DNA of 37,438 bases from a virus. Numbering within the stretch: the stretch's first letter is position 1; every line of letters begins with the position of its first letter. Both the position numbers and the translations under genes were made by a program. Positions 279-35,180 of the stretch are shown here, in pieces. The notes beneath the pieces were generated by a model. That model ran no database searches, was not told where the DNA came from, and saw nothing but the letters and a program-made list of their open reading frames with translations. The stretch is from UHGV virus genome UHGV-0041833; one strand, given 5' to 3'.

Positions 279-1190
279 ATGACCATACTGGTACCCCCAA
301 GCAAATTTTGCATTTACTCAGATGATTCTAGGGCTGGGACATTGAACTTCATCAACTCGATTGAATCGATTGGAGTAAAAAATAAAGGTCGAGTTATAGT
401 TGATTTGTCCAAGGTAAAATTTGCCTCAGCTGCGGCATCGGTACTGTTCTTTGCCATAGTAAATAGAGCTCAATTTTTAACCCGGGACCCTAATTTTATA
501 CGTTTTAAATGGCCTAAAAAGGATGATAACCCATCTGGGCATAGATGGATCGTTGGTACTGGACTTGCTCGTGCTTTGCTTGCTGGCACAGAAGAGAAAC
601 TGAATGCACTTACGAGGGAGGAACGATACTTTCAGTCAGCTGTCGAACCTTACGAGCATATTGTTGAAACAGTACTCATGCTGCAGAAAAGTGCTCTGCT
701 TAATAATGAACAGTTAGGCTTACTGCTGACAGCGATTAGTGAAGCTTTGCTCAATGTTTCTCATCATGCGTATGAAGATGAGGGGTTCGAGTCAGATATT
801 CAGCTTCTCAAAGGTAAACGATGGTGGCAGTGCGCTTGGTTCAATCGTGATGAAAATAAAGTCGTTTTTATCGTTTGTGACCTTGGATTGGGGATTTATA
901 GAAGTTTCGTGCCTAATGGTGATGGTCATAGCATTCAAAACGAAGTATCTTCTGTGGAAAGAGCTATGTTAGTAGGGGAATCCCGCTTTGTTGGTTCCGG
1001 ACGGGGAAATGGCTCTGAAGATATCAAGAGACCTATTGGGGCAGGTTGTGAGGATAATGAGACACTTCTGATACTAACAGGAAGGGCTCGTTATAGCTAT
1101 AATTCTAATGACAGTAGTCCTCGATGTGAGAAGCTAGCTGAGTACATACCGGGTACTTTACTACAATGGTCGCTGGTTCCCAGGAGATGA
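279..1190 (+). CDS. GHKL (histidine-kinase/anti-sigma-factor kinase-like) ATPase-domain protein with STAS-like N-terminal segment; cargo gene 1
   Basis: 303-aa ORF; C-terminal half has N-box-like EALLNVSHHA, G1-like CDLGLGI, G2-like GSGRGNG; N-terminal VIVDLSKVKFASAAAS resembles STAS motif; AT-rich versus phage core; first of three tightly spaced genes. Confidence 0.5.
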   Translation: MTILVPPSKFCIYSDDSRAGTLNFINSIESIGVKNKGRVIVDLSKVKFASAAASVLFFAIVNRAQFLTRDPNFIRFKWPKKDDNPSGHRWIVGTGLARALLAGTEEKLNALTREERYFQSAVEPYEHIVETVLMLQKSALLNNEQLGLLLTAISEALLNVSHHAYEDEGFESDIQLLKGKRWWQCAWFNRDENKVVFIVCDLGLGIYRSFVPNGDGHSIQNEVSSVERAMLVGESRFVGSGRGNGSEDIKRPIGAGCEDNETLLILTGRARYSYNSNDSSPRCEKLAEYIPGTLLQWSLVPRR

Positions 1191-1194
1191 TTTT

Positions 1195-1521
1195 ATGAGA
1201 AATATCGTCATAGCGAAGGAGTTCTCCAGAACACCTTTCGGACGTTACACAACGGATAGCCCACACAGTGCGGAAAGATTTCGTAGAGAGTTTTTGGTGC
1301 CTGCGCTGAAGGGTACTGAACAGGAGATTGTGGTTGATTTTCGCGGTATAGCACTGGGTGTTGGTTCCTCTTTCTTAGAAGAGGCGTTTGGAGGTCTCAT
1401 CCGTAAGGAAGGGATACCTAAAGCCAACGTTAAAGCACGTTTGATTATAAAAAGTGATGTTCCGTTCTACAAAGAACAGATTGATAAATTTATTGATTTA
1501 GCACAACCAGAAAGAGTATAA
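1195..1521 (+). CDS. STAS-like (DUF4325-type) small protein; cargo gene 2
   Basis: 108-aa ORF starting 4 nt after previous stop with AGGAGA SD 7 nt upstream; VVDFRGIALGVGSSFLEEAFGGL resembles STAS-like partner-switching domains. Confidence 0.5.
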   Translation: MRNIVIAKEFSRTPFGRYTTDSPHSAERFRREFLVPALKGTEQEIVVDFRGIALGVGSSFLEEAFGGLIRKEGIPKANVKARLIIKSDVPFYKEQIDKFIDLAQPERV

Positions 1522-1531
1522 GAGGCGATAG

Positions 1532-2149
1532 TTGATCAGTACGGAACCAATGTCATTAGTAGCACAAATAGGACAGTATTCGTGGTGTATCACAGTAGTT
1601 AGCGTCTGCTTAGTTTTCATTGGATGGCGAGTTGCGTACAATAATTCTGTAAAACTGGCGACACGTTCTGAATCGAAATCAATTATTGATGCTATTTCAA
1701 AGTTAGTTATTGAAATTTCTGATATTTCTTCTAACTATTGGCTCAGTCAGACAACTCAACCTAAAATTAGAGCATCAAAGCATCGATTGTTAAGGTTGCA
1801 AAAGGATAGAACAAAGGCTTCTGTTTCATACTTGTTAACTATCTTGGCTAAAGCTCAACAAGTTTCCAAACTGATTTGCATTTTGGAAAGCAGAGGACTG
1901 TATATACCTGACGAGGTGTTCTCATCTGTACTAGAGAAAGCAACTCTGGATTGTGAGGTCGCTCACAAGCTTTCAGATGCCGATCGCCCGGTTAAAGCAC
2001 AAGAAGTAATTGATGCTTGTATGGGAGTTATCGAAGCGTTACATACTTCTTTTCAAAGGTACCACCCTCCCAAAAAGGATCGTACCTTTATGCAAAGGTT
2101 AAAAATTTGGTTTCAAACAGTAGACGATTGGCATAATGACTTAAAATAA
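1532..2149 (+). CDS. Single-pass membrane protein with helical cytoplasmic domain; cargo gene 3
   Basis: 205-aa ORF; TTG start with AGAGG SD 6 nt upstream (alternative ATG at 1550); one predicted TM helix SWCITVVSVCLVFIGW; 3' end overlaps the int stop codon by 9 nt (convergent). Confidence 0.5.
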   Translation: MISTEPMSLVAQIGQYSWCITVVSVCLVFIGWRVAYNNSVKLATRSESKSIIDAISKLVIEISDISSNYWLSQTTQPKIRASKHRLLRLQKDRTKASVSYLLTILAKAQQVSKLICILESRGLYIPDEVFSSVLEKATLDCEVAHKLSDADRPVKAQEVIDACMGVIEALHTSFQRYHPPKKDRTFMQRLKIWFQTVDDWHNDLK

Positions 2150-3313
2150 AGCCTTTTTATCCTTGATACTTGCCCTCCCATCATACTCTTTCAAGTATTG
2201 TCCATAGTGCCTGAATAACATTTCAGGCCCTTTATGGCCCATTTGAGCCGCAAGCCAAAACAGGTTTGCTCCCCGGCTGATATGGCTGGTGGCGAATGTA
2301 TGCCTGGTTTGATATGGGTTTCTGTAACGAATACCTGCTTTTCGCAATGTTGGCACCCATGCTTTTTTCCTAATTGCATCAGCACTTGCCCAGGGTTTAT
2401 TGGTCTTTGGATCTTCAAAGACAGTAGCATCCTTCATGAATGTAAATGGCTTCTGGTTTATCAACGCCAACATTGCTTCTTCAGTCAGTTCAACTTTACG
2501 GGTACCGGCTTTTGTCTTTGTTCCTTTGATAACTCCGACAACACTTGCGCTCTGAACATGGGCTGTTTTTCCAACAAAGTCGATATCATGCCATCGTAGG
2601 GCACATAATTCAGAACTACGCAGGCCTGTATGTATGGCGAACCGGAACAGATTTTCCCATTGTTTGTTTCCGGCTGCTGCTAGTAATGCATCAACTTCTG
2701 CTGGTGATAGCGGATCAACCACATAGCTGCTTTCTGCTTCTGACTTATCACTTTGGTAGCGCGAAGCTGTTACTAACGATACGGGGTTAATTTGAAGTAC
2801 CCCATCGGTCACGGCTTCATCAAGTGCTGACCGTAGGAAAGATAACTGGTTGCGAATGGTTTTTAAGGTTGTTTTCTGGCTTTGAATCCACGCTTTCAGG
2901 GTTGCTGGTGTTAATTCACTTGCAGGGCAAATGTGAAGTGAGGCTAACGCACTACGGCATTTTTTATAGCCACCAATCGTAGAGGGTGAAAGTTTTCTTG
3001 TTTCGCAGATTTCAAGATATTCGTCCAGGTACATCTTTACCGTTTTGCTTGCAGCAGCATTACCAAAAATTTTCAAACGAGCAGAACGGGGAAAATATTC
3101 TGCATAAATGAATGTTCCCCTTTCGATCTTATTATGGATTTCGCCGAGTGTACGCTCGGCGTATTTAATGTTCTTTGGTGTTACTTCCAGATTGGAAAGC
3201 GGCTCACGACATCTAACTCCTTTGTAGGTGAAAGTTATATTGATCGTTTCTCCCTGGTGGTGTTTCCTGATTGTTACGCCGCGCGGTAGTTTGAGCAGTT
3301 TTGTCTGGCCCAT
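2141..3313 (-). CDS. int: Tyrosine integrase (phage integrase family with N-terminal arm-binding domain)
   Basis: 390 aa; ATG at 3313 with GAGG SD; C-terminal catalytic region with R...H..R...Y-type motifs (HTFATSHISRGANL, FRHYGQY); overlapped at its 5' end by the xis ORF. Confidence 0.9.
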   Translation of the reverse strand: MGQTKLLKLPRGVTIRKHHQGETINITFTYKGVRCREPLSNLEVTPKNIKYAERTLGEIHNKIERGTFIYAEYFPRSARLKIFGNAAASKTVKMYLDEYLEICETRKLSPSTIGGYKKCRSALASLHICPASELTPATLKAWIQSQKTTLKTIRNQLSFLRSALDEAVTDGVLQINPVSLVTASRYQSDKSEAESSYVVDPLSPAEVDALLAAAGNKQWENLFRFAIHTGLRSSELCALRWHDIDFVGKTAHVQSASVVGVIKGTKTKAGTRKVELTEEAMLALINQKPFTFMKDATVFEDPKTNKPWASADAIRKKAWVPTLRKAGIRYRNPYQTRHTFATSHISRGANLFWLAAQMGHKGPEMLFRHYGQYLKEYDGRASIKDKKALF

Positions 3314-3521: not shown

Positions 3522-4388
3522 TTAACGAATAGTGTCGTTACTTTGAAGTACAGCAAATGCCATTAATACTTCTAAAGTATATCTTCTATAAAATTTAACA
3601 AAACCAACATAGAAAACATAGACGAAGAAAAAGCTAAGCATTATTGAAAGTAAACTATAAAGATAATCACTATGAGTACATAATCGATAAATAAAGGTTG
3701 GAACTGATACCCAAAATGAAATTATAAAGATTAAACATATGTTTCTGCAAAAACCATATAATGCAACATAGTTTTGAATTTTTGTTTGATGTTGTTTTGA
3801 AAACTCATAAACATAATGATATGCCAATCTGAAGAGATCATCATCAAGTCCGTTTTTATCTTGTAATAATTGGCGATTTGTTATGAACTTTTTCTCATAA
3901 CCTTCTTTGATCATTAACCATGTTGTATTAGCTAAATGAAATGGTAGAGATTGAGAATAACATAGTTTTTGTGTTATAAAATCCCATAGTATTATTGGAC
4001 ATAATACGCATTTGATTATGCGATTCTTTATTTTTGTTTTTTTATCAGCGCTTCTCTCATCGCATGATGGGCTACAAATGCTTTCTGAGGTATCTATCAA
4101 TTTTTTAAATAGATATTTGGAAGGATATCCTAATTCTTTATTCATGTATTTTTCGATAAAAAATGCTGACGTGATAGAAATAAAATGTCCAGCTATATAA
4201 GATATAATAACTATTGAAGCGTAGTTCAAAATGCCAAAGATTTGACTTTGACCTCTGAGCAATTCACTTAAGTCAATAACAATATCTAGATCGAATGTCA
4301 AACCACAGAAATACATTAATAGGATAAAAAAACCACCTGGTATTAAATATCCAAGAAAGTCATAGAATGAGAATGGATTTTGATTCAT
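3522..4388 (-). CDS. Polytopic inner-membrane protein of unknown function (AT-rich cargo gene upstream of xis-int)
   Basis: 288 aa from ATG 4388 with GGAGA SD; several hydrophobic helices at N- and C-termini; strongly AT-rich; 108-bp AT-rich upstream intergenic region with promoter-like hexamers. Confidence 0.6.
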   Translation of the reverse strand: MNQNPFSFYDFLGYLIPGGFFILLMYFCGLTFDLDIVIDLSELLRGQSQIFGILNYASIVIISYIAGHFISITSAFFIEKYMNKELGYPSKYLFKKLIDTSESICSPSCDERSADKKTKIKNRIIKCVLCPIILWDFITQKLCYSQSLPFHLANTTWLMIKEGYEKKFITNRQLLQDKNGLDDDLFRLAYHYVYEFSKQHQTKIQNYVALYGFCRNICLIFIISFWVSVPTFIYRLCTHSDYLYSLLSIMLSFFFVYVFYVGFVKFYRRYTLEVLMAFAVLQSNDTIR

Positions 4389-4496
4389 TGTTGCTCTCCA
4401 ATAATTTTTCAATTTGTAATATAACCTATATCTATATGTTAATAAATTACTTATATGTTCTTTTATGGCAGAGTTTGAATTCGTACGTGCTGATTT

Positions 4497-7584: not shown

Positions 7585-8259
7585 TTAGGCTTTGATTTTG
7601 TATCTTCTTGGTTTTCCTGAGAAAATCACAGTACCAATTATAGAGCAATTACCGTTGATCTTAATGTAAGGCTCAGGCCAGTTTGGGTTTAACGCTTTGA
7701 GATAACGCTGTGTCCCATCTTCTATCAACCTTTTGAAGGTGGTTTCACCTGTATCGTGCATCAATGCAATAACGTCGTCACCGTGGCAGGCAGGTACTTC
7801 AGGATCGACAAAAATCATGTCTCCCGGGCGGTACTCATCAATCATTGAATCACCTATCACCCGCAAGATATAAGTCATTTCCCCACAGGGTACAGGGCAG
7901 GGATACGTTTCTGCTGTGCTCAAATCAACCTCAGAATATCCAACTTCTTTCCATGCTCCGGCCTGTACCCATGATATGACAGGGACTAATGTGATTTGTT
8001 TATTAGTGATTGAAACATCAGGTTTTTTTGTGATGTTCGTTGTCTGGTGTTCTTGATCGAGCCATCCGACAGGCAGGTCGAAACATTTTTCGATGTGTCG
8101 TGCCATGCTGTCACCGATATTTTTAGTAGCACCATCTCCCATAAACCTGCTGGTCTGGGTTGGCTCGCGATCAATCATAGTGGCAAAGGAAGAATTCCCG
8201 CCAACACCATCTCTCAGTTTTCTGGCGTTAGACCGCCGGATGTCATGGATTGTTTTCAT
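7585..8259 (-). CDS. cI: CI-type repressor (N-terminal HTH, C-terminal S24 LexA-like autopeptidase domain)
   Basis: 224 aa; Ala-Gly cleavage-site-like WVQAGAW, Ser nucleophile motif GDSM, downstream Lys; divergent from cro across operator region. Confidence 0.85.
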   Translation of the reverse strand: MKTIHDIRRSNARKLRDGVGGNSSFATMIDREPTQTSRFMGDGATKNIGDSMARHIEKCFDLPVGWLDQEHQTTNITKKPDVSITNKQITLVPVISWVQAGAWKEVGYSEVDLSTAETYPCPVPCGEMTYILRVIGDSMIDEYRPGDMIFVDPEVPACHGDDVIALMHDTGETTFKRLIEDGTQRYLKALNPNWPEPYIKINGNCSIIGTVIFSGKPRRYKIKA

Positions 8260-8274
8260 AACGAAATTAAAACC

Positions 8275-8345
8275 CTTGTACCGTTAAGGTACAAGTATCT
8301 TGAAGGTTCATTTCAATCATGTAATATGTACACCGGAGGTACACA
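8275..8345. promoter_or_regulatory. Right operator region: two 17-bp palindromic operators (TGTAC-N7-GTACA) flanking a rightward promoter (-35 TTGAAG 8300..8305, -10 TAATAT 8322..8327)
   Basis: OR1 cttgtaccgttaaggtacaag (8275..8295), OR2 atgtacaccggaggtacacat (8325..8345); promoter hexamers with 16-bp spacer; cro SD GGAGG at 8335..8339. Confidence 0.6.
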
Positions 8346-8349
8346 TTGT

Positions 8350-8550
8350 ATGAAAGCGTATTGGGACTCTTTAACCAAAGAACAGCAGGGCGAGTTGGCC
8401 GGAAAAGTTGGCTCAACACCTGGCTACTTACGGCTGGTTTTCAATGGCTATAAAAAAGCCAGTTTTGTGCTGGCTAAAAAACTTGAGCAATGCACGTCAG
8501 GTGCAATTACGAAATCTGACTTAAGACCGGATATCTATCCGAAAGATTAG
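8350..8550 (+). CDS. cro: Cro-like small HTH regulator
   Basis: 66 aa from ATG 8350 directly downstream of pR/operators; the 167-aa track ORF from 8047 is antisense to cI and rejected. Confidence 0.7.
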   Translation: MKAYWDSLTKEQQGELAGKVGSTPGYLRLVFNGYKKASFVLAKKLEQCTSGAITKSDLRPDIYPKD

Positions 8551-8581
8551 CAGAACACTTTCAATTTTTAACCACAGAACG

Positions 8582-9145
8582 ATGAGGCTAATCGTGGGTA
8601 AGCATCACTGGAAAATAGAAAAACAGCCTGAGTGGTACGTGAAAGCTGTCAGAAAAACGATCGCGGCGTTGCCGGGTGGTTACGCTGAAGCGGCTGACTG
8701 GCTCGATGTAACAGAAAACGCTTTATTCAACCGCCTTCGTGCAGATGGCGATCAGATTTTCCCGCTGGGATGGGCAATGGTTTTACAGCGTGCTGGTGGC
8801 ACTCACTTCATTGCTGATGCTGTGGCGCAGTCTGCAAATGGCGTCTTTGTGTCTCTTCCTGACGTCGAGGATGTGGACAACGCCGATATCAACCAACGCC
8901 TGCTGGAGGTCATTGAACAGATCGGCAGTTATTCAAAACAGATTCGTTCAGCAATTGAAGACGGTGTAGTGGAACCGCATGAGAAGACAGCAATTAACGA
9001 TGAGCTGTACCTCTCAATTTCGAAGCTGCAGGAGCATGCAGCACTGGTCTACAAAATCTTTTGCGTTTCAGAAAGTAGTGACGCCCGCGAGTGTGCAGCT
9101 CCGGGCGCCGTGGCGTGTCGTGACTGTGGAGAAACTAACGCATGA
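8582..9145 (+). CDS. CII-like regulatory protein (phage 186 CII / CP76-YdaT-type)
   Basis: 187-aa ORF directly after cro; composition and layout resemble 186-type CII proteins; C-terminal extent uncertain because of overlapping frames. Confidence 0.45.
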
Positions 9146-9480
9146 ACAGTTTAACAACACACTACCGTCGCTCGCAACTGATTGCGCTTCCTGTACCGGG
9201 TGGAAAAGCGAAGGTGGAGTATTGCTATGCAGTAAATGTACCAGGTGACAGGGAAATTGTAACCCACAGCTTTGCTGAGTGGGCTGTGGGTGATTTCAAC
9301 CGGCAGAAGGAGACAGTCCTTTGCGACAAGTTAACCGCTGGTTCAAAGATCACTACGGAGTGCCCGTCAGAGTCATTCGTTGGGAACCGGAAACACAACG
9401 GGTTATCTACCTCCGCGAAGGCTATGAGCATGAATGCTTCAGTCCGCTCGAACAGTTTCGTCGTAAATTCAGGGAAATAG
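9142..9480 (+). CDS. Hypothetical protein (frame uncertain; possibly the N-terminal part of a gene continuing in another frame)
   Basis: ATG overlaps previous stop (ATGA); the first 55 residues look protein-like, the remainder is Ser/Asn-rich and low-complexity. Confidence 0.3.
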
Positions 9481-9500
9481 AGGTCGGTCATGAGCACTAA
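9321..9500 (+). CDS. Hypothetical small protein (TTG start) translationally coupled to the replication gene
   Basis: 59 codons, AGGAG SD 9 nt upstream of TTG; stop overlaps the ATG of the next gene (ATGAGCACTAA); protein-like composition ([19 protein letters not shown]...). Confidence 0.35.
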
Positions 9501-10475
9501 ATTAACCGGCTATGTATGGGATGGTTGCGCTGCGTCAGGCATGAAGTTATCCAGCGTGGCAATTATGGCCCGCCTGGCTGATTTCAGTAATGACGAAGGT
9601 GTGTGCTGGCCATCAATTGAAACCATTGCCCGCCAGATTGGCGCGGGGATGAGTACCGTCAGAACGGCTATCGCACGGCTGGAAGCAGAAGGCTGGTTAA
9701 CGCGTAAGGCGCGTCGCCAGGGTAACCGCAATGCGTCGAATGTTTATCAGCTTAACGTTGCGAAGCTTCAGGCAGCGGCATTTTCTCAACTGTCAGATTC
9801 TGACCCGTCAAAATCTGACGCATCAAAATCTGCCCCGTCAAAATTTGATGCGTCGAAATCTGGCAAAAAAGCGGGTTTTCACCCGTCAGAATCTGGCGGG
9901 GATCCGTCAGTAAAATCAAAACATGATCCGTCAGATAAAAAAACTTCTCGTCCNNNNNNNNNNNNNNNNNNNNNNNNNNNNNNNNNNNNNCTCGTCCGGA
10001 CGCTTCGCAACCGGACACGCAGACGGCTGAACAGGAGTTTTTAACTCGCCATCCTGATGCTGTTGTATTCAGCCCTAAAAAGCGCCAGTGGGGAACGCAG
10101 GATGATTTGACCTGCGCACAGTGGCTCTGGAAAAAAATCATCGCCCTGTACGAGCAGGCTGCCGAATGTGACGGCGAGGTGGTTCGTCCCAAAGAACCGA
10201 ACTGGACAGCCTGGGCAAACGAAATTCGCCTGATGTGTGTGCAGGATGGTCGTACTCACAAACAAATCTGCGAGATGTACAGCCGCGTCAGCCGCGATCC
10301 GTTCTGGTGCCGTAACGTGCTCAGCCCGTCGAAGCTGCGGGAAAAATGGGATGAGCTTTCCCTGCGCTTATCGCCGTCCGTAAGTACGTACACCGAAAAA
10401 CGCGAGGACCCGTACTTCAAAGCCAGTTACGACAACGTGGACTACAGCCAGATCCCGGCAGGATTCAGGGGGTGA
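9490..10475 (+). CDS. Replication initiator (N-terminal HTH, internal origin iterons, DnaT-like C-terminal domain); interrupted by an N-run
   Basis: N-terminal winged-helix region; iteron-encoded repeat peptide DPSKSDASKSAPSKFDASKS; C-terminus ends YSQIPAGFRG like primosomal protein DnaT; both halves come into one frame if the N-run plus the 7-nt flanking duplicate are collapsed. Confidence 0.7.
9791..9946. repeat. Origin-like iteron array inside the replication gene, followed by an A-rich tract
   Basis: At least 6 direct repeats of about 15 bp with core CGTCA(A/G)AATCTG, then gataaaaaaac. Confidence 0.6.
9954..9990. other. Assembly gap (37 N) flanked by duplicated ctcgtcc
   Basis: N-run; identical 7-mer on both sides; collapsing restores the reading frame. 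Confidence 0.8.
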
Positions 10476-10477
10476 TC

Positions 10478-10966
10478 ATGAGTCTGTTAAATGACGTTCA
10501 GAAATTCATTGAAGCCCATCCGGGGTGTACTTCCGGTGACATTGCGGATGCTTTTGCAGGTTACTCACGACAGCGCGTTCTGCAGTCAGCAAGCAAGTTA
10601 CGTCAGAGTGGGCGTGTGGCTCACCGTTGTGAAGGAGATACACGCAGACATTTCCCGCGCCTGACTGAGAGAGCGCAGGAACCGGAACCACAACCAGTTC
10701 GAGAAACCAGACCTGTGCGCAATTTCTATGTCGGCACTAACGATCCACGGGTGATTTTGTGCCTGACCCGCCAGGCTGAAGAACTGGAGTCCAGGGGTTT
10801 ATACCGTCGTGCTGCAACCGTGTGGATGGCGGCATTCCGTGAAAGCCACTCCCAGCCAGAACGAAACAATTTTCTGGCGCGTCGTGAGCGGTGCTTACGG
10901 AAAAGCAGCAAGCGCGCTGCATCGGGTGAAGAGTGGTATCTGTCAGGGAATTACGTGGGGGCTTAA
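10478..10966 (+). CDS. Protein with PerC-like C-terminal motif and winged-helix-like N-terminus
   Basis: 162 aa from ATG 10478 (AGGGGG SD); LESRGLYRRAATVWM matches the PerC-family signature LE.RGLWRRAA..W. Confidence 0.45.
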   Translation: MSLLNDVQKFIEAHPGCTSGDIADAFAGYSRQRVLQSASKLRQSGRVAHRCEGDTRRHFPRLTERAQEPEPQPVRETRPVRNFYVGTNDPRVILCLTRQAEELESRGLYRRAATVWMAAFRESHSQPERNNFLARRERCLRKSSKRAASGEEWYLSGNYVGA

Positions 10967-11619
10967 TGAGTAATAAATATTGCCAGGCGCTGGTGGAGCT
11001 GCGGAACAAACCAGCCCATGAACTGAAGGAAGTGGGCGATCAGTGGCGCACGCCGGACAACATTTTCTGGGGAATTAACACCCTGTTTGGCCCGTTTGTT
11101 CTGGATCTGTTCACCGACGGTGGTAACGCCAAATGTGCCGCGTATTACACGGCGGAAGACAATGCGCTGGCGCATGACTGGTCAGAACGTCTTGCGGAGC
11201 TTAAAGGTGCTGCCTTTGGTAATCCCCCATACAGCCGCGCCAGTCAGCATGAGGGGCAATACATCACCGGCATGCGTTACATCATGAAGCATGCCAGTGC
11301 CATGCGTGATAAAGGCGGGCGCTATGTTTTCCTGATCAAAGCTGCCACCAGCGAAGTGTGGTGGCCGGAAGATGCAGATCATATTGCTTTTATTCGCGGG
11401 CGTATTGGTTTTGAACTGCCTGTCTGGTTTATCCCGAAAGACGAGAAGCAGGTGCCGACAGGAGCTTTCTTCGCTGGTGCTATTGCTGTTTTTGACAAGA
11501 CCTGGAAGGGACCGGCAATCAGCTACATCGGGCGCGATGAACTTGAGGCATGTGGTGAGGCGTTTCTGGCGCAGGTTCGCCAGCAGGCGGAAAAACTGCT
11601 CAGGGAGATGGCGGCATGA
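10966..11619 (+). CDS. Phage DNA N6-adenine methyltransferase (Dam-like)
   Basis: 218 aa from ATG 10966 (TAATG overlap with previous stop); catalytic NPPY motif (FGNPPYS). Confidence 0.8.
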   Translation: MSNKYCQALVELRNKPAHELKEVGDQWRTPDNIFWGINTLFGPFVLDLFTDGGNAKCAAYYTAEDNALAHDWSERLAELKGAAFGNPPYSRASQHEGQYITGMRYIMKHASAMRDKGGRYVFLIKAATSEVWWPEDADHIAFIRGRIGFELPVWFIPKDEKQVPTGAFFAGAIAVFDKTWKGPAISYIGRDELEACGEAFLAQVRQQAEKLLREMAA

Positions 11620-11942
11620 CGACGTTAACTCAATGCCAGCAGCAGGTGCTGGATATGCTGATTTCTTATCAGAAAGAACGTGGCTTCCCGCCAACCAATC
11701 AGGAGGTGGCAACCATGCTGGGATACCGTTCAGTGAATGCAGCGGTGGAGCATCTTCGAGCACTGGAGAAAAAAGGCGTCATCACGATAAAGCGTGGCGT
11801 GGCCCGGGGTATCACTCTTCATACCGCGGTGAAGGACGACGACAGCGAGGCGGTCGGGATTATCCGCTCACTGCTTGCCGGTAAGGAAAACGCCAGGCTG
11901 CGTGCAGCCCACTGGTTACATGAGAGGGGCCTGAAAGTATGA
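11616..11942 (+). CDS. LexA-like N-terminal DNA-binding-domain protein lacking the peptidase domain
   Basis: 108 aa; alignable by eye to the LexA N-terminus (LT.RQQ.V.D.I......G.PPT..E.A..LG.RS.NAA.EHL.AL..KGVI.I..G..RGI.L); no Ser/Lys autopeptidase domain. Confidence 0.65.
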   Translation: MTTLTQCQQQVLDMLISYQKERGFPPTNQEVATMLGYRSVNAAVEHLRALEKKGVITIKRGVARGITLHTAVKDDDSEAVGIIRSLLAGKENARLRAAHWLHERGLKV

Positions 11943-12328
11943 AGCTGATTCTGCCGTTTCCGCCCAGCGTGAACACGTACTGGCGACACCCCAACAAAGG
12001 GGCGTTTGCTGGTAAGAGCCTGATAAGCGCGGCGGGGCGCAAATTCCAGAGCGCGGCGTGTGCAGCAATAGTTGAGCAGTTACGTCGTCTGCCAAAACCA
12101 ACGTCGGCACCTGCTTCAGTGGAGATCGTGTTGTTTCCTCCGGATAACCGGATCCGCGATCTGGACAACTATAACAAGGCGCTGTTTGACGCCCTGACCC
12201 ACGCGGGTGTGTGGGAAGACGACAGTCAGGTGAAAAGAATGCTGGTGGAGTGGGGACCGGTTATCCCGGAAGGGAAGGTCGAGATCACTATCAGTAAGTA
12301 CGAGAAAACGGCGGGTGCAGCTGCCTGA
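11939..12328 (+). CDS. rusA: RusA Holliday-junction resolvase
   Basis: 129 aa; conserved RusA features (PPS.N.YWRH, RDLDNY.KA.FDALT..GVW.DD.QV); ATGA overlap with upstream gene. Confidence 0.85.
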   Translation: MKLILPFPPSVNTYWRHPNKGAFAGKSLISAAGRKFQSAACAAIVEQLRRLPKPTSAPASVEIVLFPPDNRIRDLDNYNKALFDALTHAGVWEDDSQVKRMLVEWGPVIPEGKVEITISKYEKTAGAAA

Positions 12329-12347
12329 TTAAGAGGAGAAACGAAGT

Positions 12348-13145
12348 ATGAATAATCTGATGGTTATTGATGGTATTGAAGTTCGTCGTGATGCTTATGG
12401 GCGTTACAGCCTGAACGATCTGCACAGGGCTGCCGGTTCTCTGGATAAGCATAAGCCTGCATTCTGGCTCCGCAATGAGCAAACTGAACGTTTAATAAGC
12501 GAGTTGCAGATTTGCAACTCGGTCAATATAGAGCCAGTTAACGTTATTCGTGGCGGAAATAACCAGGGGACGTATGTCTGCAAAGAACTGGTGTATGCCT
12601 ATGCAATGTGGATAAGCCCGTCATTCCATCTGAAGGTGATCCGTACTTTCGATATGGTAACCAGCACACCGGAAAAATTATCCGGGCAGGCTGCTGACAA
12701 GATGCAGGCTGGCGTGATCCTGCTGGACTTTATGCGCCGGGAATTAAACCTGTCTAACTCATCAGTGCTTGGAGCCTGTCAGAAGCTTCAGGAGGCTGTT
12801 GGCTTACCGAATCTGGCACCGCGCTATGCCATTGATGCTCCTGCTGACGCGCCTGATGGCTCAAGTCGCCCGACACTGTCGCTGAGTGCACTGCTGAAAC
12901 AGTATGGTATCCGCCTTACGGCTAATCAGGCATATCACCAGATGGCGAAGCTGGGGATCGTCGAACAGCGCGAACGATACAGCCGTACAGCGATTAACAA
13001 CATCAAAAAATTCTGGTCGCTGACGGCGAAAGGCTGCATGTTCGGCAAGAACATCACCAGTCCTGCAAATCCGCGCGAGACGCAGCCGCATTTCTTCGAA
13101 TCCCGATTCCCTGAGCTGTTAAAGCTGCTCGATACCGTTCATTGA
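12348..13145 (+). CDS. KilA-N domain protein (antirepressor-like)
   Basis: 265 aa; AAGAGGAG SD; N-terminal KilA-N signature (IDGIEVRRDAYGRYSLNDL ... AFWLRNEQTERLISEL). Confidence 0.6.
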   Translation: MNNLMVIDGIEVRRDAYGRYSLNDLHRAAGSLDKHKPAFWLRNEQTERLISELQICNSVNIEPVNVIRGGNNQGTYVCKELVYAYAMWISPSFHLKVIRTFDMVTSTPEKLSGQAADKMQAGVILLDFMRRELNLSNSSVLGACQKLQEAVGLPNLAPRYAIDAPADAPDGSSRPTLSLSALLKQYGIRLTANQAYHQMAKLGIVEQRERYSRTAINNIKKFWSLTAKGCMFGKNITSPANPRETQPHFFESRFPELLKLLDTVH

Positions 13146-13146
13146 G

Positions 13147-14142
13147 GTGACCGTGAGAGCACTACTGACCCCTGAAATTGCCCCGCGTATGGGGATCGTA
13201 TTGTTCAGGCCCGGTTCAGAGCTGATGCCCCTGTTTATGCAGGGGCGTGTCCTGCTGGAGCCTGAGCCGGAACGTTATTCATCTTTTGCCAGTGGTGCCG
13301 TTCCGGCGGCATCACAACCGCTGGCGGATGATCCTGCCATTCGGGCCGTGTTCCGCAATGAGGCAGTTATTCGTCGTGCGGGGGGTGTGGAATGTCTTGA
13401 AAGCTGGTTACTTCGTGAAAAGGGCTGTCAGTGGCCTCATTCCGGATGGCACAGCGAGAACATGACCACAATGCGACACGCGCCGGGCGCAATCCGTCTG
13501 TGCTGGCACTGCGATAACCTGCTTCGCGATCAGTTCACGGAACGGCTGGAATCAATGGCAACGGATAACTGTGCCCGCTGGGTGTTGTCTGTTGTGCGTC
13601 GGGATCTCGGTTTTGATGACAGTCACGTTGTGACAATGCCGGAACTGTGCTGGTGGCTGGTTCGTAATGATCTGGCGGATGCCTTACCGGAAAGTGCAGC
13701 CCGTAAGGCACTGAGATTACCGAAGCCTGTTGTGCCGTCTGTCACCCGGGAAAGTGACCTTGTGCCTTCGGTTCCTGCCACCAGCATCATCCAGGATAAG
13801 GCGAAAAAGGTGCTGGCGCTGAAAGTGGATCCGGAGTCGCCGGAGTCTTTTATGTTACGCCCAAAATGTCGCCGCTGGGTTAATGAAAAGTACACGCGCT
13901 GGGTTAAGACACAGTCGTGTGCATGTTGTGGAAAGCCCGCTGATGATCCCCACCACCTGATAGGCCACGGACAGGGTGGAATGGGTACAAAAGCGCATGA
14001 CCTTTTTGTGTTGCCTTTGTGCAGAAAGCATCACGACGAGCTGCATGCGGATACCGTGGCATTTGAAGAGATGTATGGCTCCCAGCTGGAGCTGATATTT
14101 CGTTTTATCGATCGTGCGCTGGCAATTGGCGTACTGGTGTAA
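13147..14142 (+). CDS. nin-region protein with C-terminal Cys/His zinc-binding HNH-like motif (DUF968-like)
   Basis: 331-aa ORF (GTG start uncertain; alternative ATG 13189); C-terminal CACCG...HHLIGHG...H...C.KHHDELH. Confidence 0.45.
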   Translation: MTVRALLTPEIAPRMGIVLFRPGSELMPLFMQGRVLLEPEPERYSSFASGAVPAASQPLADDPAIRAVFRNEAVIRRAGGVECLESWLLREKGCQWPHSGWHSENMTTMRHAPGAIRLCWHCDNLLRDQFTERLESMATDNCARWVLSVVRRDLGFDDSHVVTMPELCWWLVRNDLADALPESAARKALRLPKPVVPSVTRESDLVPSVPATSIIQDKAKKVLALKVDPESPESFMLRPKCRRWVNEKYTRWVKTQSCACCGKPADDPHHLIGHGQGGMGTKAHDLFVLPLCRKHHDELHADTVAFEEMYGSQLELIFRFIDRALAIGVLV

Positions 14143-14155
14143 GTGGAGAACGAGC

Positions 14156-14908
14156 ATGAACCTTGAAGCCTTACCGAAATATTACTCCCCAAAATCTCCA
14201 AAATTGAGCGATGACGCATCGGCGACAGGCTCGGGTGGTTTAACAATTACGGATGTAATGGCTGCGCAGGGGATGGTGCAGTCGAAAGCACCGCTTGGGT
14301 TTGCCTTATTCCTGGCAAAAGTTGGTGTTCAGGATCCTCAGTTTGCGATTGAAGGCCTGCTCAATTACGCGATGGCACTGGATAACCCGACATTGAACAA
14401 ATTGAGTGAAGAAACCCGGTTACAGATCATCCCTTACCTTGTGAATTTTGCCTTTGCTGATTATTCCAGGTCTGCGGCAAGTAAGGCTCGCTGTGAGCAT
14501 TGTACTGGTACTGGATTTCATAATGTATTGCGCGAAGTGGTGAAACATTCCAGAAGCGGGGAATCCGTTATCAAAGAAGAGTGGGTGAAGGAACTGTGTC
14601 AGCATTGTCATGGCAAGGGAGAAGTCAGCACGGCGTGCAGAGGGTGTAAGGGTAAAGGTATTGTCCTGGATGAAAAAAGAACCCGGCTTCATGGCACGCC
14701 TGTTTATAAGACTTGTGGGCGTTGCAATGGAAACCGGTTTAGCCGTTTACCGACTACACTGGCACGACGTCATGTCCAGAAGCTGGTTCCAGACCTGACT
14801 GATTATCAGTGGTACAAAGGATATGCAGACGTAATTGATAAACTAGTAACAAAGTGCTGGCAGGAAGAAGCATATGCTGAAACACAATTGAGAAAGGTGA
14901 CGAGATAA
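14156..14908 (+). CDS. Late-gene antiterminator Q (zinc-finger type)
   Basis: 250 aa from ATG 14156 (GGAG SD); several CxxC/CxxG zinc-binding pairs; last gene before the late promoter/terminator and lysis genes. Confidence 0.7.
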   Translation: MNLEALPKYYSPKSPKLSDDASATGSGGLTITDVMAAQGMVQSKAPLGFALFLAKVGVQDPQFAIEGLLNYAMALDNPTLNKLSEETRLQIIPYLVNFAFADYSRSAASKARCEHCTGTGFHNVLREVVKHSRSGESVIKEEWVKELCQHCHGKGEVSTACRGCKGKGIVLDEKRTRLHGTPVYKTCGRCNGNRFSRLPTTLARRHVQKLVPDLTDYQWYKGYADVIDKLVTKCWQEEAYAETQLRKVTR

Positions 14909-14939
14909 GTGATTTTCGCCGAAGATAGTGACATGAAGC

Positions 14940-14968
14940 TTGCATTTTTCAAAAAATATGGATAAGAT
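14940..14968 (+). promoter_or_regulatory. Candidate late promoter (PR'-like): -35 TTGCAT, 17-bp spacer, -10 TAAGAT
   Basis: Hexamers read directly; located between Q and a downstream intrinsic terminator, as in lambdoid late regions. Confidence 0.4.
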
Positions 14969-15014
14969 TTTCTCAACGATGGGCTTTGTATGTCTGCCGT
15001 TGATAATTTTCACG

Positions 15015-15040
15015 AACCCGCTGTTGAGCGGGTTTTTATT
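15015..15040 (+). terminator. Intrinsic terminator (tR'-like) downstream of the late promoter
   Basis: aacccgc tgttga gcgggtt stem-loop followed by TTTTT. Confidence 0.6.
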
Positions 15041-15093: not shown

Positions 15094-15429
15094 ATGATTA
15101 ATGCCGTTGAGTACAGATTACCGTTAGGAAATATCTCTCCAGAGAATCTTGACGCGTTGTCAGAACTTATCGTTAAGCATTCCGATAAATTTAATAACTA
15201 TGTACTTAGTTCTATTTCTGATGATGATATTCGATATTCTTACGATTACTACAATTTTGAAATCACAGAGATAGATGAATATGGGTTTCACTTTATAGCA
15301 CCATATAGCTATTATGAAGGATGCGTTGACAATAACTTCTCAGGAGAGGTTGAAGGTTATGCAGAATACGAAATTATTGATAATGAATTAGTCTTCTCTC
15401 TTGAGGAACTACCTTGGGATGTAAAATAA
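15094..15429 (+). CDS. Small highly acidic, Tyr-rich protein of unknown function (moron between Q and holin)
   Basis: 111 aa; strong AAGGAGG SD; AT-rich; no signal peptide or TM segment; own terminator. Confidence 0.6.
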   Translation: MINAVEYRLPLGNISPENLDALSELIVKHSDKFNNYVLSSISDDDIRYSYDYYNFEITEIDEYGFHFIAPYSYYEGCVDNNFSGEVEGYAEYEIIDNELVFSLEELPWDVK

Positions 15430-15440
15430 ATATCAATAAT

Positions 15441-15470
15441 AAAGGCCGTAACGAACGGCCTTTATTATTA
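15441..15470. terminator. Hairpin terminator after the acidic moron (9-bp perfect stem, A/T-flanked, potentially bidirectional)
   Basis: aaaggccgt aacga acggccttt followed by attatta. Confidence 0.6.
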
Positions 15471-23749: not shown

Positions 23750-23799
23750 NNNNNNNNNNNNNNNNNNNNNNNNNNNNNNNNNNNNNNNNNNNNNNNNNN
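23750..23799. other. Assembly gap (50 N) interrupting a GC-rich hairpin after the capsid gene
   Basis: Left flank cagggg and right flank cgcggaaccgcgccccctg are complementary halves of a strong stem-loop. Confidence 0.7.
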
Positions 23800-33508: not shown

Positions 33509-34572
33509 ATTTCAGCGCCCGACGCTGGCAGAAAATATCAGTATGCTCCGTAACGATTTATTCGCCAGGCTGGACGTCAGCGACACGCTCCGGCGCATGG
33601 ATGAAGACGTGCGGGCAAAGGTGTATGCGGCGGCGCTGCATACGGTTTACGGGTACATCGATTATCTGGCAATGAACATGCTGCCTGACCTGTGCGATGA
33701 GTCCTGGCTGGCGCGACATGCTGCGATGAAACGGTGTCCGCGCAAGGGGGCCACGACTGCCAGCGGGTATATGCGCTGGGAAGGCGTCAGCGATGGCCTG
33801 AAGGTGACCGCCGGGAGTGTTATTCAGCGCGATGACCTGATTCAGTACACGGCAACTGCCGATGCAACCAGCGCCGGTGGTGTCCTGCGCGTGCCGATCG
33901 CCTGCTCAAGTGCAGGCGCGGTCNNNNNNNNNNGGCGCGGTCGGTAACGCTGACGACGGTACGTCATTAATCCTGGTCACGCCGGTTAATGGTCTGCCGT
34001 CTTCCGGCGTGGCAGACACTCTGACAGGTGGATTTGATACTGAAGAGCTGGAAACGTGGCGCGCCCGCGTCATTGAGCGGTATTACTGGACGCCTCAGGG
34101 CGGGGCTGACGGGGACTATGTTGTCTGGGCTAAAGAATTGCCCGGCATTACCCGCGCATGGGCATACCGTCACTGGATGGGAACGGGGACTGTCGGTGTG
34201 ATGATTGCCAGCAGTGACCTGATTAATCCCATTCCGGAAGAATCAACGGAAACGGCGGCAAGACAACATATCGGGCCACTGGCCCCGGTGGCAGGCTCTG
34301 ATTTGTATGTGTTCAGGCCGGTGGCGCATACGGTGGATTTTCATATCCGTGTGACGCCGGATACACCGGAAATACGGGCTGCCATCACCGCGGAGTTGCG
34401 TTCGTTCCTGCTGCGTGATGGTTATCCGCAGGGAGAACTGAAGGTGTCGCGTATCAGTGAAGCGATTTCCGGTGCGAACGGGGAATACAGCCATCAATTG
34501 CTTGCACCGGCGGAAAATATCTCCATTGCAAAAAATGAACTGGCGGTTCTGGGGACGATTTCATGGGCGTGA
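33495..34572 (+). CDS. Baseplate J-like protein (Mu gp47), split in the ORF track by an assembly gap
   Basis: Track ORFs 33495..33947 and 33862..34572 come into one frame if the 10-N run and the 9-nt duplicate ggcgcggtc are collapsed. Confidence 0.7.
33924..33933. other. Assembly gap (10 N) flanked by duplicated ggcgcggtc
   Basis: Direct reading. Confidence 0.8.
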
Positions 34573-35180
34573 CAAACGATGATTACATCCGTCTGTTGTC
34601 GGCACTGCTGCCGCCCGGTCCGGCGTGGTCAGCCAGCGATCCGGCGATTGCCGGTGCGGCACAGTCATTAACCCGCGTTCATCAGCGTGCGGATGCCCTG
34701 ATGCGGGAGCTGGATCCGCGCACCACCACCGAACTGATAAATCGCTGGGAGCGTCTGTGCGGCCTGCCGGATGAATGTATTCCCGCAGGAACACAGACCC
34801 TTCGCCAGCGTCAGCAACGACTGGATGCGAAGGTTAACCTGGCGGGCGGCATCAATGAGGATTTTTACCTTGCACAGCTTGCTGCCCTGGGCAGACCAGA
34901 CGCCACCATCACGCGATACGACAAAAGCACGTTCACCTGCTCATCGGCCTGTACTGACGCGGTGAATGCGCCGGAATGGCGGTATTACTGGCAGGGCAAC
35001 AAANNNNNNNNNNGGTATTACTGGCAGGTCAACATGCCAGCCGCCACCAACAGCACCTGGATGACATGTGGCGATCCCTGTGATTCCGCGCTGCGTATCT
35101 GGGGCGACACCGTCGTCGAATGTGTGCTTAACAAACTCTGCCCTTCGCATACCTACGTAATTTTTAAATATCCGGAGTAA
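34563..35180 (+). CDS. Tail protein (Mu gp48 / DUF2313-like)
   Basis: 205 aa; N-terminus [18 protein letters not shown] typical of DUF2313 tail proteins; contains a 10-N gap flanked by an imperfect 23-nt duplication. Confidence 0.65.
35004..35013. other. Assembly gap (10 N) flanked by near-duplicate ggtattactggcagg(g/t)caaca
   Basis: Direct reading. Confidence 0.8.

Follow-up and report, generated by a model that had tools for sequence, protein, structure and literature searches.

[quoted passage not shown] The gene itself is already annotated (as 'LexA family transcriptional regulator' and in PHROG 362) and is common in E. coli prophages. Its product is 100% identical to the PGAP entry WP_000210172.1 of that name, and at the DNA level the gene is 100% identical to a PGAP-annotated gene of ATCC 11775. 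The PHROG family name, 'transcriptional repressor', was assigned by similarity. No functional study or experimental data on the family were found in the searchable literature, and a survey of Stx phages gives it only as 'pham 237, pfam01726' (PMC8136144).

LexA homology and loss of the protease domain

The relationship to LexA is evident from profile, pairwise and structural comparison alike. Pfam LexA_DNA_bind (PF01726) matches the protein over the complete model (1-65 of 65) with an E value of 2.9e-19 and 69 bits at a cutoff of 23.7 bits, while the second-best HTH family reaches only E 0.0015 and stays under its own cutoff. In a phmmer search of the PDB, the N-terminal domain of E. coli LexA is the top match (1lea, E 6.9e-16), and BLASTP against LexA residues 1-68 yields 35 identities in 68 gap-free positions (51%). 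The AlphaFold model, with helices at residues 6-22, 28-35 and 40-52 and strands at 56-58 and 66-68, retrieves the LexA-DNA complex 3jso first in Foldseek, with an rmsd of 1.0 Å over 68 columns. Judged by these scores, the similarity is LexA-specific and a generic HTH match is excluded. Hence, the match to the LexA N-terminal winged helix that the preliminary description had noted by eye is borne out, and the alignment with LexA that it had proposed as a check did not end in similarity limited to a generic HTH.

Beyond this domain, the two proteins part. Pairwise BLASTP against LexA finds no significant similarity past residue 68, and no Pfam match to Peptidase_S24 (PF00717) is obtained anywhere in the 108 residues. 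The NCBIfam lexA equivalog model (TIGR00498) scores 69.3 bits, below its cutoff of 110.95, and is matched only at positions 1-91 of 203. The downstream ORF was considered as a split-off LexA C-terminal domain and ruled out, as it encodes RusA. Thus, the protein does stop before the Ser/Lys catalytic domain, as had been claimed, and since this domain is missing, LexA-type self-cleavage is impossible, which upholds the earlier designation as non-cleavable in the manner of LexA.

Gene context and expression

The features of the locus are compiled in Table 1. The gene is tightly embedded in its operon: the stop codon of dam and the start codon of the LexA-like gene overlap in an ATGA at 11616-11619, the LexA-like stop and the RusA start overlap in another ATGA at 11939-11942, and the block around the gene contains essentially no intergenic DNA. 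On the plus strand, no promoter-like site was found from 8200 to 12329. With the replication genes on one side and the Q antiterminator on the other, the position of the gene agrees with the nin-region location given in the preliminary description. The prophage repressor, named 'LexA family protein' ymfK in PGAP, carries an S24 peptidase domain, so prophage induction and, with it, expression of the LexA-like gene should follow RecA activation.

Table 1 Features at and around the LexA-like gene
Feature	Position	Strand	Details and basis
CI-type prophage repressor with S24 peptidase domain	7585..8259	-	Pfam Peptidase_S24, E 1.5e-26
nin-type delayed-early block: PerC-like/Dam/LexA-like/RusA/KilA-N/DUF968-HNH/Q antiterminator	10472..14908	+	PGAP, Pfam
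Phage N-6-adenine methyltransferase (Dam), upstream gene	10966..11619	+	PGAP of identical prophage, sequence
Ribosome-binding site AGGGAG	11602..11607	+	8 nt before ATG, within end of Dam gene; from sequence
LexA-like protein, complete ORF	11616..11942	+	108 aa plus stop; ORF list and sequence
Winged helix-turn-helix domain, aa 1-69	11616..11822	+	Homologous to LexA residues 1-69
Recognition helix, aa 40-52, VNAAVEHLRALEK	11733..11771	+	S39 directly precedes; aligned to LexA
C-terminal two-helix hairpin, aa 75-88 and 93-103	11838..11924	+	Model, conservation, hhalign
RusA Holliday-junction resolvase, downstream gene	11939..12328	+	PGAP of identical prophage, sequence

The gene order of this nin-type block is also found in mEp460, Kati and Stx2a_WGPS2 as well as in Cronobacter, Salmonella, Atlantibacter and Kosakonia prophages, with RusA as the most constant neighbour across subfamilies. 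Such company could mean that the protein is a non-transcriptional DNA-binding accessory which targets or restrains RusA, the DUF968/HNH nuclease or the methyltransferase on phage DNA and would, in this respect, resemble the small DNA-binding proteins from the lambda nin region. The order LexA-like–RusA–DUF968–Q is kept in the E. coli, mEp390, Salmonella, Atlantibacter, Kosakonia and Enterobacter subfamilies, in most of which the RusA start overlaps the LexA-like stop, and the gene directly upstream usually encodes a DNA methyltransferase, whose family varies (PF05869, PF02086 or PF00145). However, Klebsiella prophages retain the gene without RusA or methyltransferase, some modules have Dam adjoining RusA without it, and the strict conservation of recognition-helix contacts described below argues for sequence-specific binding. 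Moreover, phage genomes are mosaic, so that neighbouring genes say little about function. Altogether, an accessory of this kind appears quite improbable. PADLOC returned only a sub-threshold wHTH match.

Distribution and dispensability

Of 5426 complete E. coli genomes, 2233 (about 41%) carry the gene at 95-100% identity, and a single genome can have as many as four copies. Its product matches PHROG 362 over the full length (residues 1-108 against 1-106 of 106, E 5.9e-59), including the C-terminal ~35 residues, and full-length matches are likewise obtained for mEp390 gp43 and a 135-aa relative from Enterobacter. Named members of this PHROG comprise SfV orf42, mEp460 gp46, the cdtI phage protein, Stx2a_WGPS2_21 and mEp390 gp43; the proteins of SfV, mEp460, the cdtI phage and Stx2a_WGPS2 are 96-99% identical to the one described here, and gp43 about 47%. 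The family is thus present in SfV, mEp460, cdtI and both Stx2a and Stx2c phages, and in the latter two types the gene lies a few kilobases upstream of stx2.

Dispensability of the gene follows from its precise absence from 3 of 51 otherwise near-identical modules; a natural Dam–RusA junction without it is seen at locus L154 (GGCATGAAGCTG). This dispensability, together with frameshifted and fused variants, would fit a lexA gene that was captured, is now in decay and has no function at present. Those variants are singletons, however, and the ORF is intact in all of the E. coli genomes counted above. Single clusters at 90% identity hold up to 2527 member sequences, and full-length relatives of 40-50% identity with the same architecture exist in at least eight genera. 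The conservation pattern, with its focus on the residues that contact DNA and on the hydrophobic face of the C-terminal hairpin, argues strongly against a remnant, an explanation that is barely credible.

Conservation of DNA-contact residues

Four of the five LexA base-contact residues listed in the literature (PMC3091678) are present in the phage protein, namely S39, N41, A42 and E45. Its recognition helix aligns to LexA S39-P-N-A-A-E-E-H-L with retention of N41, A42, A43, E45 and H46 and replacement of E44 by V, and the LexA wing is retained as well (G61, R64, G65, I66). Among the 116 unique family members, S39 is kept in 116, N41 in 115, A42 in 101 and E or D at position 45 in 101, while K53, R64 and G65 are kept in 115, 112 and 113, respectively. 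The base-contact and wing positions of LexA are the best conserved ones in proteins that are otherwise only 40-50% identical, which points to a half-site common to the family. The rigid spacing of the LexA operator has been attributed to wing contacts (PMC8565304), and the wing with this role is conserved in the LexA-like protein.

Two further positions set the family apart from LexA. R28 and E44, the latter among the listed DNA-contact residues, are invariant in 76 of 76 full-length beta/gamma-proteobacterial LexAs, a control set drawn from a contig scan with the family alignment, which had retrieved mostly genuine lexA genes since these share the peptide pattern. In the family, by contrast, R28 is retained in 0 of 116 members and E44 in 2 of 116, the protein of this phage having N28 and V44 instead. 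Due to these replacements, its affinity or flanking-base preference is probably unlike that of LexA. Additionally, recognition-helix positions 40, 44, 45 and 46 vary between subfamilies, with SSNAVLLHL in Klebsiella and SPNAATDML in Cronobacter, so that not every member can read the sequence recognized by LexA.

The C-terminal hairpin

The preliminary description made no mention of the two-helix hairpin that follows the winged helix and could turn a truncated LexA domain into an effective dimeric binder. Residues 75-103 are modelled with a pLDDT of about 85, and the hydrophobic positions A79, V80, L/I82, I/L83, L86, L87, A93, A97, W/F100 and L101 are conserved among 114 unique relatives. The amphipathic hairpin is, we infer, a dimerisation element pairing two subunits. 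In profile-profile alignment by hhalign, family columns 1-99 run against LexA 1-95 straight through the hinge, so that A88-G89 falls on the LexA scissile bond, A84-G85. Accordingly aligned, the first hairpin helix would derive from the LexA hinge and the cleavage-site strand.

The same alignment, in which L86-L87-A88-G89 corresponds to LexA V82-A83-A84-G85, allows for a protein that serves as decoy: a hinge and cleavage-site mimic would fill the active site of an S24 peptidase or the RecA* groove and so modulate cleavage, with host LexA, UmuD and prophage CI as the proposed S24 targets. Against such mimicry, Ala-Gly is retained in only 46 of 114 unique members (40%), the segment is predicted to be alpha-helical rather than the strand-loop that LexA presents to the active site, and the pairwise similarity to LexA ends at residue 68, as mentioned above. 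A decoy function is therefore considered very unlikely.

LexA boxes and other candidate operators

Enterobacterales, to which all hosts of the family belong, share the LexA box CTGT-N8-ACAG. In the window, i.e., the whole stretch of DNA analysed (37,438 nt), the number of exact matches to this box is zero, so the earlier failure to spot one by eye reflects the sequence. With one mismatch allowed, 17 sites are found versus 12.5 expected. When CTGT-Nk-ACAG and ACAG-Nk-CTGT were counted in the window for k = 0-20, no CTGT-N(0-10)-ACAG dyads were obtained. With neither an SOS box nor a promoter-like site upstream, the LexA-like gene lacks the autoregulatory arrangement of lexA.

Several other candidate sites were considered and discarded. 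ACAG-N14-CTGT is present 4 times versus 0.47 expected, with sites that are unrelated in sequence and of which at least two early-region ones are coding. The perfect inverted repeat ACCCACAGC-N12-GCTGTGGGT (9262-9291) was rejected as operator since it lies within a 112-aa ORF; it recurs only in phage Kati and an identical prophage. Two CTGT-N8-TCAG sites in the KilA-N gene (12750 and 12776, 26 bp apart; 2 versus 0.9 expected) have GC-rich spacers, only one of the two is retained in mEp460 and Kati, and they were taken as chance. The surroundings of the pR'-like site (14928-14957) yielded no candidate palindrome.

In other phages carrying the gene, there are four fixed positions at which a consensus LexA box is found repeatedly. 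The first is the cI linker (TACTGTATATAAAAACAGTA); over the 20 bp of this box, the E. coli and Cronobacter genes, otherwise about 70% identical, agree perfectly. The second comprises codons 3-9 of a late-region methylase (TACTGTAAAAATAAACAGTG), the third is located upstream of a KilA-N variant directly after RusA (TACTGTATTTATGAACAGTG), and the fourth is the head of operons containing the Klebsiella, Enterobacter and Scandinavium homologues; in Klebsiella and Scandinavium, dinI shares this SOS-box-headed operon with the homologue. Among IMG/VR loci sharing the same DUF968 gene, 30 of 48 gene carriers have a LexA box versus 2 of 7 non-carriers, a difference that is suggestive but not significant against this small matched control (Fisher p = 0.12) and is confounded by linkage. 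The phage-borne boxes are most simply explained by host LexA alone.

A different type of target would be expected if the protein were a phage-specific transcription factor, with an operator of its own distinct from the SOS box, activating or repressing phage genes in lytic development. This has a precedent in gp6 of phage GIL01, which binds its own palindrome at the P3 -35 element and activates late transcription (PMC6182141). The loss of R28 and E44 and the helix variation between subfamilies fit a diverged specificity, and BFVD holds many stand-alone LexA-domain proteins of unrelated phages. However, no candidate operator was found in a block essentially devoid of intergenic DNA, and the inverted repeats that were found are coding or unconserved. 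The LexA-like protein is at least 97% identical across phages in which the similarity between the CI proteins is limited to one local match of 39 aa and the Q proteins are without similarity; given these unrelated regulators and late regions, the protein is unlikely to act on a phage site in the immunity or late-control regions. Moreover, S39, N41, A42 and E45 are the best conserved residues, unlike in co-evolving specificities of the heteroimmune style, and gp6 itself has no pairwise similarity to the protein and belongs to a different PHROG. Altogether, a phage-specific factor appears unlikely, yet it is the alternative that we take most seriously.

Proposed role as a non-cleavable LexA surrogate

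As a LexA surrogate, the protein would have arisen from the 5' third of a lexA gene, from which the N-terminal domain plus hinge were kept, while the S24 protease/dimerisation domain was lost and a short amphipathic two-helix hairpin would now pair two subunits. Without a promoter of its own, it would be translated from the pR-driven, antiterminated delayed-early transcript in coupling with Dam and RusA. Expression would hence be confined to the time after destruction of the S24-type CI, that is, when RecA* has also cleaved the host LexA. The dimer could then bind LexA-type dyads with a CTGT-like half-site and wing-defined spacing, which would be located in the host chromosome and in co-resident elements and, for sister phages, would be the phage-borne LexA boxes. 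As an outcome, repression at LexA-type sites would be re-imposed or prolonged in a RecA-insensitive manner.

Carried further, about 41% of the complete E. coli genomes would harbour prophages encoding a RecA-proof LexA stand-in that re-occupies LexA boxes and thereby rewires or shuts off the SOS regulon. Its carriers would be lambdoid and SfV-like prophages, including Stx2a and Stx2c converting phages, and the boxes concerned would be those of the host chromosome, of colicin plasmids and of rival prophages, as well as, in sister phages, those in the cI linker, the late-region methylase and the KilA-N genes. This wider claim is doubtful. From sequence analysis, occupancy of SOS boxes by the LexA-like protein is neither proven nor refuted: it is favoured by the conserved contact and wing positions, by the near-identity of the protein in phages with unrelated CI and Q and by the relatives in operons behind SOS boxes, and disfavoured by the replacement of R28 and E44, by the helix variation between subfamilies and by the lack of an exact box in the window. 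If LexA-type operators are bound, the protein would represent a natural non-cleavable SOS repressor which is on exactly when LexA is lost. This would matter for the release of Shiga toxin in response to antibiotics, for SOS mutagenesis and for the competition of co-resident prophages and colicin plasmids. If other DNA is bound instead, it would be the second independent case, after GIL01 gp6, of a phage re-using a LexA domain as its own regulator.

Comparison with known systems

With E. coli LexA, the phage protein shares residues S39, N41, A42, A43, E45, H46, K53, G61, R64, G65 and I66 and, according to profile-profile alignment, a homologous hinge region. It differs from LexA in lacking the S24 peptidase/dimerisation domain with Ser119 and Lys156 and, along with it, RecA*-stimulated self-cleavage; a two-helix hairpin is found in its place, N28 and V44 replace R28 and E44, and the score remains under the NCBIfam equivalog cutoff. 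In contrast to lexA, the phage gene is part of a lytic operon and has no autoregulatory SOS box at its locus.

The closest characterised analogue, and the only experimentally characterised precedent found, is gp6 of the Bacillus thuringiensis tectivirus GIL01. This truncated LexA homologue binds a palindrome of its own which overlaps the -35 element of the late promoter P3, and activates transcription there (PMC6182141). Both are phage-encoded LexA DNA-binding domains without a protease domain. However, gp6 is only 66 aa long, lacks the C-terminal hairpin and belongs to PHROG 3502 (1.8e-21) instead of PHROG 362. Homology to gp6 was also sought by pairwise comparison and discarded there, as BLASTP gave no alignment at E ≤ 100. 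Moreover, gp6 derives from a Gram-positive LexA, and its host, virus family and genome context are unrelated to those of the LexA-like gene. Within PHROG 362, on the other hand, the protein is an ordinary member with nothing different in its sequence, encoded at the nin-type position next to RusA and DUF968 and upstream of Q.

In domain content, the phage protein equals the N-terminal cleavage fragment of LexA (residues 1-84). This fragment reportedly retains weak operator binding and is said to require removal by ClpXP for full SOS induction. While the fragment ends at the cleavage site in a ...VAA degron, the phage protein runs past this position into a folded hairpin and ends in ...GLKV; lacking the degron, it should be stable.

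Identity of the LexA-like protein

The preliminary description had placed a 108-aa protein at 11616-11942 and had likened it to the LexA winged-helix domain; both statements stand, the ORF having 108 codons on the + strand, and the resemblance is strong and particular to LexA. Its match to Pfam LexA_DNA_bind spans the full model (1-65/65, E 2.9e-19) with all other Pfam HTH families under threshold, the nearest solved structures are E. coli LexA chains (1lea, E 6.9e-16), and BLASTP against E. coli LexA gives 35/68 identities without a gap. AlphaFold predicts the LexA topology H-H-H-β-β (mean pLDDT 81.9), and the first Foldseek match of this model is the DNA-bound LexA domain in 3jso (1.0 Å rmsd, 68 columns). 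Hence, the similarity is not limited to a generic HTH. The autopeptidase domain is likewise missing as described: no S24 peptidase domain is found in the protein, and the next gene encodes RusA rather than a displaced C-terminal LexA domain. Against the NCBIfam lexA equivalog, the protein scores 69 bits, below the cutoff of 111.

Features of the window and LexA-type boxes of related loci (window positions unless preceded by an L-handle, which denotes a related phage or prophage locus or IMG/VR contig with its own coordinates)
Feature	Position	Strand	Remarks
Three-gene cargo	279-2149	+	at prophage end, adjoins integrase
Integrase gene	2141-3313	-	
Early-left protein	3522-4412	-	296 aa, no Pfam match
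S24-type CI repressor	7585-8259	-	then cro and cII-like gene
Replication gene			after cII-like gene; iteron-like repeats
TCAAAATCTGAC-like repeats	9777-9854		overlapping inverted and direct, within replication-initiator gene; look like origin iterons
N runs	9954-9990, 23750-23799, 33924-33933, 35004-35013		masked or unknown bases
PerC-like	10472-10966	+	gap-free block
Dam methylase	10966-11619	+	gap-free block, directly upstream of LexA-like gene
RBS AGGGAG	11602-11607	+	of LexA-like gene; read from sequence, good site
LexA-like ORF	11616-11942	+	108 codons, ORF list
ATGA overlap	11616-11619	+	upstream stop/LexA-like start; sequence
ATGA overlap	11939-11942	+	LexA-like stop/downstream start; sequence
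RusA	11939-12328	+	gap-free block, directly downstream of LexA-like gene
KilA-N	12348-13145	+	gap-free block
DUF968/HNH	13153-14142	+	gap-free block
Q	14156-14908	+	gap-free block; then pR'-like promoter and terminator
pR'-like site GTGACA-18-AAAAAT	14928-15035 region		just 3' of Q; classic pR'/tR' layout for Q antitermination
Strong terminator	15014-15035		~60 nt after pR'-like site
111-aa ORF	15094-15429		
Second terminator	15434-15470		perfect 15-bp stem, after 111-aa ORF
cI-linker box TACTGTATATAAAAACAGTA	L101 1233-1252, L002 1546-1565, L007 3190-3209	sense of cI	Stx2a_WGPS2, mEp460, Cronobacter prophage
Methylase box TACTGTAAAAATAAACAGTG	L002 10597-10616, L010 ~11310, L011 ~11444, L046 8881-8900		degenerate copy L101 12072-12091
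KilA-N box TACTGTATTTATGAACAGTG	L126 9067-9086		also L137, L141, L161, L163, L178, L180
Operon-head SOS boxes	L004 6385-6404, L016 6560-6579, L046 2778-2797		relatives

DNA-contact residues

Residue conservation was compared between 76 full-length LexAs of beta- and gamma-proteobacteria, a by-product of an otherwise unhelpful genome scan, and 116 unique family members. S39 (116/116), N41 (115/116), A42, A43 and E/D45 (101/116 each) are kept in the family, as are K53, G61, R64, G65 and I66. The DNA contacts listed for LexA are S39, N41, A42, E44 and E45 (PMC3091678), four of which are among these kept residues, as is the wing, to which the rigidity of LexA operator spacing has been ascribed (PMC8565304). 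Contact and wing residues are the best-conserved positions of an otherwise highly divergent family, which argues for a half-site shared across it. The same conservation pattern contradicts a decaying remnant, a reading that deserves hardly any credence. In contrast, R28, A29 and E44, each present in 76/76 LexAs, are found in only 0/116, 6/116 and 2/116 family members, respectively; the window protein carries N at position 28 and V at position 44, and subfamilies differ at positions 40, 44, 45 and 46. Judged by these alignments, the domain is clearly LexA-like, yet not under the exact constraints of LexA. A Scandinavium relative is the only one seen with both R28 and E44.

C-terminal hairpin and proposed function

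Common to all full-length relatives are ~35 residues past the wing, modelled in the LexA-like protein as two helices (75-88 and 93-103, pLDDT ~85) after a low-confidence linker, with hydrophobic positions in both helices kept among 114 unique sequences. A hairpin of only two helices would probably not be stable by itself; we infer that it pairs two subunits, replacing the dimerisation role of the lost LexA C-terminal domain. In a profile-profile alignment, family columns 1-99 fall on LexA 1-95 (probability 99.95%), so that the first helix descends from the LexA hinge. This alignment also brings A88-G89 into register with the A84-G85 scissile bond of LexA, the position on which a cleavage-site decoy would depend; Ala-Gly occurs there in only 46/114 relatives, so that A88-G89 is regarded as an ancestral relic, not as a working site, and a decoy role is very improbable. 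Among other proteins from the exhaustive search (P0131, P0132, P0148, P0151, P0152, P0155, P0159 and others; 140-350 aa), two LexA DNA-binding domains occur in tandem, and these may be single-chain pseudo-dimers.

Our preferred, if tentative, reading is a LexA surrogate: a stable dimer, insensitive to RecA, that would bind LexA-type dyads with an affinity or specificity changed from that of LexA. It would be made once LexA is gone, and its targets would be SOS operators of the host or of co-resident elements, joined in sister phages by phage-borne boxes.

Genome setting and expression

The window is an SfV-like/e14-like prophage; the E. coli ATCC 11775 prophage is 100% identical over the 327-bp ORF and alike in gene layout. 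Downstream of the pR'-like promoter and terminator follow lysis genes and then Mu-like morphogenesis genes. No promoter-like site was found on the + strand between 8200 and 12329, and the LexA-like protein is therefore presumably translated from the antiterminated pR transcript. Being delayed-early and lytic, it would appear after CI has been destroyed, and CI destruction, hence its expression, would coincide with cleavage of host LexA.

The N run at 9954-9990 breaks the replication gene; on the upstream side of this run, the coordinate offset against the identical prophage of ATCC 11775 changes by 44 bp. Of the three cargo products, one (303 aa) has a sub-threshold match to the histidine-kinase-like ATPase HATPase_c_2 (E 9e-5), one (108 aa) is a STAS-like DUF4325 protein (E 6e-14) and the third (205 aa) matches nothing; PADLOC gave no match for this cargo, possibly an uncharacterised defence or accessory module. 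The early-left protein has a weak PADLOC match (E 1.4e-5) to Csx27, a membrane protein associated with type VI-B CRISPR systems, which probably reflects only shared transmembrane composition.

Distribution and gene context

Of 5426 complete E. coli genomes, 2233 carry the gene, and single genomes have as many as four copies; identity is almost always 95-100%. Its existence is known from databases and the observation is ordinary annotation: PGAP labels it "LexA family transcriptional regulator", PHROG 362, the family to which it belongs, is named "transcriptional repressor", and a Stx-phage survey lists the protein only as "pham 237, pfam01726" (PMC8136144). No functional study of PHROG 362-type proteins was found in the literature searched. 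Carriers include SfV (orf42), SfII, SfIV, mEp460, cdtI phage and Ayreon as well as Stx2a (WGPS2, 1447), Stx2c and Stx2k converting phages; in Stx2a_WGPS2, the gene lies ~6 kb upstream of stx2A. The question of function deserves attention because the gene is so prevalent, occurs in Stx phages and lends itself to simple, decisive assays. By exhaustive HMMER and profile search, full-length relatives of 40-50% identity were found in prophages of Cronobacter, Klebsiella, Enterobacter, Salmonella, Atlantibacter, Kosakonia, Citrobacter, Hafnia and Scandinavium, one Klebsiella cluster comprising 1017 sequences.

Gene order at family loci hardly varies from LexA-like–RusA–DUF968–Q, usually with a DNA methyltransferase of varying family directly 5' of the LexA-like gene and an antirepressor-like gene (KilA-N, Rha/ANT) 3' of RusA. 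These neighbours figure in an alternative in which the protein would work with RusA, DUF968 or the methylase in a role outside transcription, which we consider improbable. The gene behaves as a discrete cassette: exactly this ORF is absent from three IMG/VR contigs (L154 8781, L158 8748, L175 8781), in which the Dam stop directly overlaps the RusA start (GGCATGAAGCTG), the neighbours being 97-100% identical to those of carriers; the gene is therefore dispensable.

LexA-type boxes and candidate targets

As the preliminary description had noted by eye, the window holds no exact CTGT-N8-ACAG; one-mismatch sites number 17 against 12.5 expected, and no LexA-type dyad was found at spacings of 0 to 10. 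Identity of the protein stays at 97% or more between phages with unrelated Q proteins and with CI proteins alike only in a local match of 39 residues, so that a target in the immunity or late-control regions seems unlikely. A private operator, as for GIL01 gp6, the truncated LexA homologue of a Bacillus thuringiensis tectivirus, is a rather unlikely alternative, with no candidate site found and the protein constant across unrelated regulatory backgrounds.

Consensus LexA boxes recur at four fixed places in carriers: the cI linker, the late methylase, ahead of KilA-N and at operon heads. The cI-linker box is a 20-bp island of perfect identity between the cI genes of an E. coli Stx2a phage and a Cronobacter prophage, otherwise ~70% identical DNA, a pattern suggestive of selection at the DNA level; no promoter-like site adjoins the box, and 13/13 phage records with this cI allele are carriers. 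The methylase box spans codons 3-9 of a late-region N6/N4 DNA methylase, encoded between Q and the lysis or stx genes and absent from the window's phage; it occurs in 29 phage records, and 27/27 E. coli and Shigella ones are carriers. In a variant of the module, an intergenic region of 150 bp behind RusA contains the third box, with a variant KilA-N gene ~100 bp downstream of it; this gene, right behind the LexA-like–RusA pair, looks like a LexA-controlled antirepressor-type gene. Finally, consensus SOS boxes head Klebsiella, Enterobacter and Scandinavium operons with a conserved gene set of orf82/96, LexA-like (130-135 aa form) and orf67, of which the small proteins orf82/96 and orf67 have no Pfam match. 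dinI comes first behind the box in Klebsiella and Scandinavium, and immediately before the Enterobacter box lie a terminator and a TTGCAA-17-AATAAT promoter. As the Enterobacter phage repressor (128 aa) has no S24 domain, orf82 may be a LexA-controlled antirepressor.

Most simply, the phage-borne boxes are host LexA sites. In a matched set of IMG/VR loci that have their DUF968 gene in common, a box was present in 30/48 carriers and 2/7 non-carriers (Fisher p = 0.12). Co-occurrence within a few kb is confounded by linkage; the association is a lead, not evidence.

Comparison with known systems

The LexA-like protein is not a LexA, because protease domain, curated score, R28/E44 and autoregulatory box were all tested and are lacking. 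Membership in the gp6 family was rejected, as gp6 falls in another PHROG and pairwise comparison gives no similarity; by analogy with GIL01 gp6, the protein may nevertheless work as a phage-owned LexA domain too. Since BFVD shows stand-alone LexA-domain proteins to be widespread in unrelated phages, it belongs to an already known type, of which this member is experimentally uncharacterised. What sets it apart is the putative, hinge-derived dimerisation hairpin together with the systematic replacement of R28 and E44.
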